NCBI GenBank assembly: GCA_019358935.1
Contig: JAHHIK010000018.1
Coordinates: 1-64,000 of the forward strand
Direction of reading: 5' to 3'
Source: Tolypothrix carrinoi HA7290-LM1
Lineage (GTDB): Bacteria; Cyanobacteriota; Cyanobacteriia; Cyanobacteriales; Nostocaceae
DNA: 64,000 bases
The position numbers and the translations under genes are program-made. Shown here piece by piece: positions 48,807-57,139 of this stretch (position 1 is its first letter; every line of letters begins with the position of its first letter). The notes under the pieces are model-generated. The model did no database searches, was not told the DNA's origin, and worked only from the letters and a program-made list of their open reading frames with translations.

Positions 48807-49634
48807 ATGCACTGGTTGTTATCTGGACCGTTGAGTGTAGAGAAATTGACGGTTAAGATTGCTGGTTTACCCACATCATTACAAAACTTAAAGCTGGTGC
48901 AGATGTCAGATTTTCACTATGATGGTTTGCGGTTGAGTGAAAATATGTTAGATAAAGCGATCGCTCTCAGCAACGAAGCCGAACCAGATTTAGTATTATT
49001 AACCGGCGACTACATCACCACCACCCCAGCACCGATTCACCAACTAGTGCTAAGACTCAAACATTTACAAAGTCGTGCCGGAATATATGCTATACTAGGA
49101 AACCACGATATATGTTATCGCAACTCCAAAGCAGAAGTCACAGCCGCCCTCACAAGTATCGGAATTAACGTATTGTGGAATGAAATCGCCTATCCGTTAG
49201 GAAAAGAATTACCAATAGTAGGATTAAGCGATCGCTACTCACGGGAATTTAATCCTGCACTAGTTATGAACCAACTAGATCCGGCGACACCTTGCATTGT
49301 ATTATCCCACAATCCAGACACAGCCGAGATATTGCAACAATGGCGAGTAGATTTGCAACTATCAGGTCATACTCACGGCGGTCAAATAATGATTCCGAAA
49401 ATGGGTCCCGCGCTGCTTTATCATCGCAAAATCCTGCGAAAAATACCAATGAAAATACGGCGACGAGTTCCATGTTTGCGAAGAGAATACTCAGTAGTCC
49501 GCCATTGGGAATGGGCGCAAGGATTGCATCAAGTCGGAAAAAATCAATTATACGTCAATCGCGGCTTAGGAACTTATTTCCCAGGACGTTTATTTTGCCC
49601 CCCAGAAGTGACAGTAATTACCTTAGAGGGTTAG
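48807..49634 (+). CDS. Calcineurin-like metallophosphoesterase (copy 1)
   Basis: SDFH, TGD, GNHD, SHNPD and GHTHGG motifs. Confidence 0.92.
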   Translation: MHWLLSGPLSVEKLTVKIAGLPTSLQNLKLVQMSDFHYDGLRLSENMLDKAIALSNEAEPDLVLLTGDYITTTPAPIHQLVLRLKHLQSRAGIYAILGNHDICYRNSKAEVTAALTSIGINVLWNEIAYPLGKELPIVGLSDRYSREFNPALVMNQLDPATPCIVLSHNPDTAEILQQWRVDLQLSGHTHGGQIMIPKMGPALLYHRKILRKIPMKIRRRVPCLRREYSVVRHWEWAQGLHQVGKNQLYVNRGLGTYFPGRLFCPPEVTVITLEG

Positions 49635-49868
49635 TGGATAGTGGGGCATGGGGCATCGGGCATGGGGGAGGCAGTGCGGTCTTGGTGTCGGACCTGCGTG
49701 GAGCATCTGCCGTCATGGGGCATGGGGACTGGAAAAAGAATTATTACCCATTGCCCAATGCCCATTGCCCAATGCCCATTACCCACTAACAACTAACCAA
49801 CAACTATCAACTAACAATTTAAATTTTGGTAAGCTATAAGCGCTAGTATGAGGAGAATCTCTGGCGCT

Positions 49869-50699
49869 ATGCATTGGTTGTTAACAGGACCTTTAAGTAT
49901 AGATAACCTGACGATAAAGATAGCGGAACTTCCAACATCTTTACAAGGCACAAAACTAGTGCAATTGTCAGATTTTCACTACGATGGTTTGCGGTTAAGT
50001 GAAGAAATGTTAGAAAAAGCGATCGCCTTTAGCAACGAAGCCGAACCGGATTTAGTTGTATTAACCGGCGACTTCGTAACCGACGATCCTACCCCAATTC
50101 ATCAACTAGTACATCGACTCAAACATCTGCAAAGTCGCTGTGGTATTTACGCCGTACTAGGCAACCACGATATACATTACAACAAATCCAAAACAGAAAT
50201 TACCACCGCCTTAAATAGCATCGGGATTCATGTTCTTTGGAATGAAATTGCCTATCCCCTAGGAAAAGAATTACCAATAGTAGGACTAGCCGATTATTGG
50301 TCAAGAGAATTTAATCCCGCACCAGTGATGAATCAAATAGATCCTGCAACACCCCGCATCGTTTTATCGCATAATCCAGATACAGCCAAGATATTGCAAC
50401 AATGGCGAGTAGACTTGCAACTATCAGGTCATACCCACGGTGGTCACATCGTCATTCCTGGCATTGGTCCGGTGATAGTTTATTATAAAAAGCTTCTAAA
50501 AATACTTCCCAAAAAACTGCGGCGTTGGGTGCCCATTTTGCGCGGAGACTGTTCTAAAGTAGTGCGATATTGGGAATGGGCGCAAGGTTTTCATCATGTA
50601 GGAGAAAATCAATTATACGTCAATCGCGGCTTAGGAACTTATTTCCCCGGACGCTTATTTTGTCCACCAGAAGTTACTGTAATTACGTTAATTAGTTAG
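49869..50699 (+). CDS. Calcineurin-like metallophosphoesterase (copy 2, tandem paralogue)
   Basis: Same motifs; highly similar to copy 1. Confidence 0.92.
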   Translation: MHWLLTGPLSIDNLTIKIAELPTSLQGTKLVQLSDFHYDGLRLSEEMLEKAIAFSNEAEPDLVVLTGDFVTDDPTPIHQLVHRLKHLQSRCGIYAVLGNHDIHYNKSKTEITTALNSIGIHVLWNEIAYPLGKELPIVGLADYWSREFNPAPVMNQIDPATPRIVLSHNPDTAKILQQWRVDLQLSGHTHGGHIVIPGIGPVIVYYKKLLKILPKKLRRWVPILRGDCSKVVRYWEWAQGFHHVGENQLYVNRGLGTYFPGRLFCPPEVTVITLIS

Positions 50700-54268: not shown

Positions 54269-56004
<1,736 letters not shown>

Positions 56005-56035
56005 AACTGCTATAATTCTACAAGCGCACTTTTTT

Positions 56036-56356
56036 GGGGCTGTAGCTCAGTTGGATAGAGCGAGCGCCTCCTGAATAATCGGGCACCATGAAGGAAACTT
56101 GATGAGTGAATGTGGTTAAATTCGGTGAACCCTAAAGAGTATGTTTACTAGAGTGTTGACACTTCAAGGGAATACCGAGCCAAGCCTGAATCGAAAAAAC
56201 GAAAACAATGTTATAACTTCGACTCAGGAAGGTGTAGAGACTAGATAGCCACCACCTAAAGGCTAAAAAGCCTATGGTGAAGGTATAGTCCGGAGAGTGG
56301 GGAAACTCACACAAATCTGAAGCGCTAGGTCGCCGGTTCGAACCTGGCCAGTCCCG
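56036..56356 (+). tRNA. trnR: tRNA-Arg(CCU), exons 56036-56072 and 56320-56356, interrupted by an intron
   Basis: Acceptor GGGGCTG/CAGTCCC, D arm GCTC/GAGC, anticodon stem AGCGC/GCGCT with loop CT-CCT-AA after joining, T arm GCCGG-TTCGAAC-CTGGC; TATAAT at 56011. Confidence 0.93.
56073..56319 (+). ncRNA. Group I self-splicing intron (247 nt, no ORF)
   Basis: 5' exon ends in U and intron ends in G; P1 CCU-GA/UC-GGG; P AAATTCGGTGAA, Q AATACCGAGC, R GTAGAGACTA, S AAGGTATAGTCC; P3 GTGGTT/AGCCAC. Confidence 0.92.
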
Positions 56357-56515: not shown

Positions 56516-57139
56516 TTGTTTTTCTTTTTAATTAGAGAAAATTCTCTGAACAGACGAAGTAGTAGAGCCTTGAATAAGTTACTTTTTACAGGGAAATCAT
56601 TTCGATTTATGGTTATTGCCCTACCGCTGTTGATGTGGTTGGGATATAAGGAAGTTAAAAGCCAAGTTGTACAACCCCAAGCGGTCTTAGTTTTGGGTGG
56701 TTCGACTGCGAGATTAGAACGAGAGAAGTTTACAGCAGATTTTGCCCGTAAGAATCCAAATTTACCGATTTGGATTACTGGTGGTAGCCCAAAAAAGACT
56801 ACTGAAAGAGTGTTTGCTAAAGCAGGAGTTGATCCCCGACGTTTACACCTGGACTATGAAGCGGTAGATACAGTTACAAATTTTACCACATTGGTGGATG
56901 ATTTGGAAAAGCGCGGCATTAAGAGTGTGTATTTGATTACATCAGATTATCATATGCGCCGCGCCTGTGTGATCGGCGAGATTGTTTTGGGTAGTCGGGG
57001 GATTATATTTAAGCCAGTGTCGGTTCCTTCACAGCGATCGTCTGAACCAATTGAAAAATCAGTCCGCGATGGTGCTAGGGCTTTAGTTTGGATGACAACT
57101 GGCTACACAGGGGCAGATGAAGCGAAAAATAAGCGGTGA
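56516..57139 (+). CDS. YdcF / DUF218 family protein
   Basis: VLGG, AVDTVTNF and ITSDYHMRRA motifs; start uncertain. Confidence 0.85.
   Translation: MFFFLIRENSLNRRSSRALNKLLFTGKSFRFMVIALPLLMWLGYKEVKSQVVQPQAVLVLGGSTARLEREKFTADFARKNPNLPIWITGGSPKKTTERVFAKAGVDPRRLHLDYEAVDTVTNFTTLVDDLEKRGIKSVYLITSDYHMRRACVIGEIVLGSRGIIFKPVSVPSQRSSEPIEKSVRDGARALVWMTTGYTGADEAKNKR

Follow-up and report, generated by a model that had tools for sequence, protein, structure and literature searches.

A group I intron in the tRNA-Arg(CCU) gene of Tolypothrix carrinoi is most likely the deleted descendant of an HNH-bearing cyanobacterial intron

The 64,000-nucleotide stretch of Tolypothrix carrinoi HA7290-LM1 DNA analyzed in this study (the window) contains a tRNA-Arg(CCU) gene whose halves are separated by an insert, raising the questions of what the insert is, where it came from, and whether it can still move. 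A sequence-only reading of the window had described it as a group I intron unusual for a cyanobacterium, possibly acquired horizontally without a homing endonuclease. The insert was identified as a group I intron of the long-known class Arg.5Ug. It is highly probable that the gene encodes a housekeeping tRNA-Arg(CCU), that its intron self-splices after U36, and that the intron is an immobile remnant from which an antisense HNH gene was deleted.

When positions 56073-56319 were cut out, ARAGORN returned a regular tRNA-Arg(cct), and in intron mode it called the gene at 56036-56356 as i(39,247). Among 90 junction pairs tried, the length-preserving registers that gave an Arg(cct) slid along one diagonal, and only the register 56072/56319 combined an Arg(cct) product with a preceding U and a terminal G. 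The sequence-only reading had placed a 247-nt insert with a terminal G directly 3' of the CCU anticodon and had the two halves folding upon its removal; its coordinates proved exact. It had also predicted that standard annotation would miss the gene, and ARAGORN without intron mode indeed called zero tRNAs in the whole window. The gene and its surroundings are composed of the following features:

54790-56004, plus strand: tocopherol cyclase gene, the upstream neighbor (PF14249, E = 1.8e-166).
56008-56016, plus strand: extended -10 promoter-like element (TG + TATAAT, 10/12 match), just downstream of the tocopherol cyclase gene, in a short spacer.
56036-56072, plus strand: tRNA-Arg(CCU) 5' exon, ending in the CCU anticodon; U36 (56072) is U(-1) of the 5' splice site.
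56073-56319, plus strand: group I intron, class Arg.5Ug, core type A, 247 nt, with the omega-G at 56319.
56320-56356, plus strand: tRNA-Arg(CCU) 3' exon, through the discriminator G and without an encoded CCA.
56516-57139, plus strand: DUF218 protein gene, the downstream neighbor (PF02698, E = 8.5e-12).

The number of -10-like elements (two sites found, 1.3 expected) is not significant alone. An element resembling the one at 56008-56016 recurs upstream in many relatives, and this element is likely the tRNA promoter. Elsewhere in the window, positions 48807-50699 contain two tandem and closely similar ORFs, metallophosphoesterase-like by eye, with a repeat-rich spacer between them.

The intron was matched by the Rfam group I family RF00028 at 56060-56312 over the full model (1-253), scoring 61.3 bits (gathering score 50; E = 4.1e-13), and this was the only Rfam family found at the locus. 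The intron strand folds with a z score of -4.06, and none of 200 shuffles folded equally well. The following elements were assigned within the intron:

56070-56074 with 56079-56083, plus strand: P1, including the U56072-G56081 wobble pair.
56117-56247, plus strand: inner core module, composed of the last P3 pair, P4-P5-P6, the 5' strand of P7, and a minimal J7/3.
56239-56243 with 56286-56290, plus strand: P7, the G-binding helix.
56247-56252, plus strand: P3'.
56253-56279, plus strand: P8.
56297-56310, plus strand: P9 hairpin.

The structure was evaluated in an alignment (A1) of 33 diverse ORF-less relatives, taken from 43 non-redundant ones. The P1-P9 structure paired in 97.8% of cells, compared with 28-40% for slid controls, where the structure was hand-drawn from the window sequence and is thereby favored in the slide control, the alignment rows are related, and the controls are generous. 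Two-sided changes occurred in 25 of 59 pairs (shuffled mean 14.8; 0 of 500 shuffles reached 25), and several pair types were seen in each of P2, P3, P4, P6a, and P8. Covariation was found in three of six P3 pairs and five of six P4 pairs, and P7 was mostly invariant. The P1 U-G pair claimed in the sequence-only reading (U56072-G56081) was kept in all 33 sequences, and the terminal G, present as G56319 in the window, was found in all 102 parsed cyanobacterial introns. All of the core residues that are invariant in the family, including those of P7 and the P1 U-G pair, are present in the window copy.

Self-splicing at U56072 and G56319 is predicted because of this intron anatomy and its conservation. 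The P1 U-G pair would hold U56072 while free guanosine attacks just after this residue, and the 5' exon would then attack after the omega-G at 56319 to join the exons. The RNA evidence consisted of contigs from eight of 24 runs, all of them from relatives (word share 0.22-0.30). The joint 56072-56320 was seen in a single case (run X7, depth 2.3) and is equally explained by intronless alleles, as three of ten congeners lack the intron. A second candidate for a spliced product, the joint 56069-56320 in run X5, was rejected, as it contains other letters and belongs to another tRNA.

The extent to which the cell relies on this tRNA was evaluated from its other arginine tRNAs and codon use. The split gene is the only regular Arg(CCU) gene found in the genome. 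A second Arg(CCU) call, located in a tRNA array, is atypical, with a length of 71 nt and mismatches in the D arm and the anticodon stem, and the genome also encodes a tRNA-Arg(UCU). AGG makes up 5.6% of arginine codons, or 2.85 per 1000, by crude ORF calls, and AGG can often be read by UCU anticodons. Maturation of this AGG-reading tRNA would depend on splicing, as had been proposed, but the dependence of the cell is uncertain because of the tRNA-Arg(UCU) and the atypical array call. It could be argued that the intron is decayed or splices poorly, so that the gene would in effect be silent, with the tRNA-Arg(UCU) or the array copy reading AGG; the rarity of AGG and the presence of both alternatives would be in keeping with this. 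Yet the tRNA exons are intact, the invariant core residues have been retained, and the array copy is itself mismatched in two stems, making a silent gene the least credible of the alternatives considered in this study. The genome includes two tRNA arrays (C42:901-1483 and C183:6577-9684, with five and 23 calls, respectively), which hold the atypical Arg(CCU) and odd Leu calls and look like accessory tRNA operons.

The intron was found to be common among cyanobacteria. Across the phylum, at least 50 of the 400 sampled genomes carry it at the same site, counted among the matches listed that reach into the intron, and all 48 of the matches that were fetched had the intron directly after CCT and ending in G; a further 194 matches in this sample were weaker. 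In the family of the window, 46 of 300 genomes matched; all 46 were fetched, 45 parsed with both exons, and one was cut by a contig end. Among ten congeners with the same locus, the intron was short in five, long in two, and absent in three, placing it in seven of the ten. The vte1-tRNA-DUF218 locus is the same across the family. Accordingly, the view that the intron is unusual in a cyanobacterium was overturned by these counts. Of the two points on which the sequence-only reading would have given up its novelty, a widespread intron was borne out, and a description at this site in the Nostocales was not found in the literature searched.

The ancestry of the intron was examined in unrooted trees of short alignments (124-194 columns). 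Among metagenome loci, 55 of 80 were parsed and the 25 without a 3' exon were omitted; metagenomes provided 46 distinct Arg(CCU) introns of non-cyanobacterial type, of which 25 were used after thinning. In the tree of 194 columns, 19 cyanobacterial copies formed one clade (98/92), composed of subclade A (98/88), which includes the window copy, and subclade B (100/99). Over the same columns, the window intron shared an identity of 80-91% with type A, 71-79% with type B, 71-74% with three metagenomic introns, and 57-66% with the other 22, whose exons we take to be proteobacteria-like. The three metagenomic introns L244, L250, and L273 were placed as the sister group of the cyanobacterial clade (99/99) and lay well apart from the remaining non-cyanobacterial introns.

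A tree joining the window intron with the 22 non-cyanobacterial introns was rejected (AU p = 1.1e-5). Only three RF00028 matches were found in the genome, corresponding to the Arg(CCU) intron, the tRNA-Leu(UAA), and an initiator-type tRNA-Met(CAU), and the window intron is 56% identical to the Leu intron and 53% to the fMet intron. The comparison thus lends no support to a recent import from the 22-intron group or to a transposition from the Leu or fMet introns of the same genome. The proposed site shared with the alphaproteobacterial Arg(CCU) class was borne out, as the insertion follows the third anticodon base, while the proposed horizontal acquisition without a homing endonuclease ran against the placement of the intron in the cyanobacterial clade and the remnant of an HNH gene inside it. 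Searches of plasmids and phages returned no Arg(CCU) intron closely similar to the window copy. On the Bradyrhizobium plasmid CP094621.1 (L129:1370-1660), a tRNA-Leu(UAA) that had not been annotated was found to contain a group I intron of 204 nt, and this gene occurs on conjugative Bradyrhizobium plasmids. Additionally, an intron-like stretch of locus L215 was matched, at about 72% identity, by regions of enterobacterial plasmids that bear no annotation.

The endonuclease remnant is located in the P5 loop:

56132-56167, minus strand: stump of an antisense Zn-finger/HNH gene, 12 in-frame codons composed of the first codons and the stop.

The sequence-only reading was correct that the window copy encodes no intact homing endonuclease, the longest stop-free stretch of its sense strand being 39 aa, but it had overlooked this antisense stump. 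Evidence for the origin of the stump came from six type A introns with a 457-464-nt insert in the P5 loop, four in the family of the window and two in other families. Read antisense, an ORF of about 153 aa is intact in four of these inserts and frameshifted in the other two, and the two intact ORFs that were scanned matched the HNH_2 domain (PF13391, E = 4e-12 and 3.5e-10). The 32-nt P5 loop of the window, read antisense, consists of 11 codons and a stop, with the frame and the positions of start and stop as in the HNH ORF; the start codon is TTG in the window and ATG in the congeners G284 and G564. The last 21 bases of the loop matched the six inserts at 14-17 of 21 positions (shuffle p <= 2.5e-4), compared with 11-13 for the best match elsewhere in the insert. 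Loop lengths in type A introns are graded (143, 113, 78, 55, 32, and 29 nt), and several of the shorter loops are clean fusions of the first and last codons of the ORF. A start of the form [MLI][KEN]C was found in 28 of 61 type A rows and in none of 41 type B rows. Since an N-terminal CxxC motif is shared by 103 of 120 HNH homologs, the stump codons would derive from the protein and not from the ribozyme, although the stump overlaps the P5 helix and part of its conservation is structural. The stump was absent from all 14 type A copies of family f3.

A close relative appears to retain the insert at full length. A 1999-nt contig from a microbial-mat RNA library (X10) spans the locus with 28 differences in about 600 bases (about 96% identical). 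Between 56140 and 56142 it holds 427 further letters, which give a loop of exactly 458 nt; from its position and length, this insert is taken to be the HNH gene. An HNH homolog was not found in the genome of the window, and no minus-strand promoter for the antisense ORF stood out. Taken together, these data make it most likely that the window copy cannot move by itself and derives by deletion from an HNH-bearing intron. The divergence of the HNH genes roughly tracks that of their hosts (73-82% nucleotide identity versus 67-78% for a host marker), hence no recent HNH-driven transfer between genera is visible.

HNH homologs were also observed beside tRNA genes in other settings. Among 48 viral homologs (L161-L208), 46 had a tRNA within about 1.2 kb (32 on the same strand and 14 on the opposite strand), and some fell within split-tRNA calls. 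Similarly, in five cyanobacterial genomes of family f52 (L133-L137), a free-standing homolog lies on the strand opposite to an adjacent, uninterrupted tRNA-Met(CAT). These locations fit a lineage of tRNA-targeting endonucleases.

Type B introns differ from type A in P4, P5, P6, and J6/7, with compensating changes, and are associated with a different endonuclease. A LAGLIDADG_2 ORF was located between P7 and P3' in 17 of the fetched type B copies (PF03161, E = 1e-33 to 1e-39), and the other type B copies have stump-like loops of 20-90 nt at this position. Both acidic motif residues, which we presume from I-SceI to be the catalytic ones, were found in three of the 17 copies, all three in the family of the window. 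Most copies outside the family (L036-L039, L055-L064) lack one or both residues while their long frames are kept open, and a maturase role for copies without the acidic residues is possible. A LAGLIDADG stump was looked for in the window copy and rejected, as its J7/3 is minimal. Like I-SceI, their best solved match (E = 1.2e-4), the proteins of the relatives are LAGLIDADG enzymes; unlike enzymes of the I-SceI type, they are encoded in a bacterial tRNA intron.

The two types were found to be combined in congeners of the window. In G555 (L096, C118:7437-8343) and G577 (L097), an outer intron of the window type surrounds a type B core with a LAGLIDADG_2 ORF in which both acidic motif residues are present, and the type B and LAGLIDADG module takes the place of the segment equivalent to 56117-56247 of the window. 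The outer segments of G555 differ from the window at two of 116 positions and from the congener G518 at none. For the inner core, 20 of 67 positions distinguish G555 from the window, and none distinguishes it from a genome in another family. The same junction was found in G577, up to the contig end. An assembly chimera is unlikely because two congeners and a second genus show the mosaic, a pairing of types A and B inside one shell recurring in genus g23 (94/98). Consistently, the outer segments rejected type B as a single clade (AU p = 0.007), and the inner ones gave it strong support (100/99). The LAGLIDADG ORFs of G555 and of G470, a genome of another genus, share 97.3% identity, compared with 78.4% for a host marker, which indicates a recent move of the module.

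Cores and endonucleases thus appear to be swapped within one intron shell. A fuller version of this picture, in which the intron is a modular element whose two cores, each with its own endonuclease, compete for one site and swap inside the shell through crossovers in the P3 strands, the LAGLIDADG enzyme perhaps cutting ORF-less type A copies, is a serious possibility that we rate slightly below an even chance. In its boldest form, the LAGLIDADG enzyme would cut the ORF-less type A intron and home into the occupied site, carrying P4-P6-P7 with it. Alternatively, the swap could occur by recombination between two intron alleles in P3.

The leader of the gene, a spacer of about 45 nt before the tRNA (55995-56035), differs between intron-bearing and intronless congeners, and, by eye, most of the intronless loci sampled in the family, about 17 of 21, have a leader like that of the intronless congeners. 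Since the intronless congeners have a different leader, the difference points to the exchange of alleles at the DNA level rather than to a loss through cDNA. The link between leader and intron is not strict, because two RNA-library contigs (X5 record 15 and X2 record 3) pair a short intron with a leader of the intronless type. A host tree of the genus constructed from the flanks was mostly unresolved.

These observations bear on two further accounts of how the intron arrived. An ORF-less intron might have been acquired horizontally, possibly from an alphaproteobacterium, without an endonuclease, for example by reverse splicing. The patchy presence in the family (46 of 300) and the site shared with the proteobacterial class agree with such an event, and the two contigs just described suggest that ORF-less copies may move between close relatives. 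This account is countered by the HNH stump in the window intron and by the closest relatives being cyanobacterial, as type A copies share 80-91% identity with it and the 22 metagenomic introns 57-66% (AU p = 1.1e-5); it is largely refuted for a distant donor and is very improbable overall. An intron inherited vertically since ancient times, cleanly lost on repeated occasions and not mobile of late, with the endonuclease genes as late passengers in some copies, has more in its favor but is still unlikely. It would account for the locus common to the family, for the HNH identities being close to those of the host marker, and for the stumpless type A copies of family f3, but it is contradicted for type B by the LAGLIDADG ORFs of G555 and G470 with an identity far above that of the hosts. 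The different trees from the outer and inner segments, with the type B clade rejected on the former, and the intronless congeners with a leader that would not result from cDNA loss also speak against it.

The preferred reading, an immobile remnant of an HNH-bearing intron, would begin with the spread, in the lineage, of a type A intron whose P5 loop contained an HNH gene, followed by the trimming of the gene to 12 codons, which P5 tolerated. The locus would still be exchanged by recombination with intronless alleles and with the rival type B core that carries the LAGLIDADG gene.

Several aspects of the intron are shared with known tRNA introns, while others set it apart. The Arg(CCU) introns are associated with HNH_2, encoded antisense in the P5 loop, and with LAGLIDADG_2, encoded between P7 and P3; both differ from I-Ssp6803I, the endonuclease of the fMet intron, which belongs to the PD-(D/E)XK family. 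The fMet intron of cyanobacteria and its endonuclease are the subject of Biniszkiewicz (1994) and Bonocora & Shub (2001). As in the present case, a group I intron lies in a tRNA anticodon loop, is patchily distributed, and may or may not carry a homing endonuclease; the tRNA and the site are different, and the fMet intron of the same genome is only distantly similar (53%). For the tRNA-Leu(UAA) intron, a 'nested evolution' in which the whole tRNA locus recombines is the subject of Rudi et al. (2002), and here too the leader and the tRNA allele appear to travel with the intron state. In contrast to the Leu case, recombination also replaces the interior of the Arg(CCU) intron, and the two introns of the window genome are 56% identical. 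The tRNA-Leu(UAA) intron of this genome (L001, C30) is 300 nt long, with a P6 loop expanded by short tandem repeats.

In the available text of Williams (2020, bioRxiv 10.1101/2020.01.27.920355), tRNA-Arg(CCU) introns form the class Arg.5Ug, one of four classical tRNA classes, marked IC3; introns above about 400 bp are said to possibly contain genes, with endonucleases otherwise not analyzed there. The window intron lies after anticodon-loop position 5 of a tRNA-Arg, with a U(-1) and an omega-G, as this class is defined, and it does not belong with the mobile introns that encode an endonuclease. The host tRNA, the site after the third anticodon base, the U(-1)/omega-G boundaries, the compact core, and the length of 200-300 nt are shared with the Arg.5Ug introns of that source, while the window intron differs from others of the class in its membership of a distinct cyanobacterial clade with two core types and two endonuclease families. 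Among the literature searched, judged by title or abstract, no paper was found that describes a tRNA-Arg(CCU) group I intron of cyanobacteria, the Nostocales included, and neither an HNH nor a LAGLIDADG gene in a cyanobacterial Arg(CCU) intron was found in the full-text literature judged in the same way, where the table of Williams may list cyanobacterial Arg.5Ug counts. The available portions of an Arthrospira paper and of the Hausner review do not mention a tRNA-Arg(CCU) intron, and the Microcystis NIES-843 paper states an absence of tRNA introns.

The split tRNA-Arg(CCU) gene is therefore an ordinary member of the class Arg.5Ug that is common in related species, and the picture of two endonucleases and swapped cores was not found in the literature searched. 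Because default tRNA scans miss the split gene, a sizeable share of the genomes of filamentous cyanobacteria can appear to lack a tRNA-Arg(CCU). The comparison also supplies the missing, candidate agents of mobility for a class of tRNA introns long described as sporadic, and within a single genus it offers a natural progression through gain, decay, deletion, and loss. The results suggest that P4-P6/P7 modules can pass between diverged introns with the fold kept, which bears on the invasion of introns by endonucleases and on the modularity of ribozymes. As stump-bearing, core-swapped, and intronless alleles coexist in a single genus, the cycle is directly testable.
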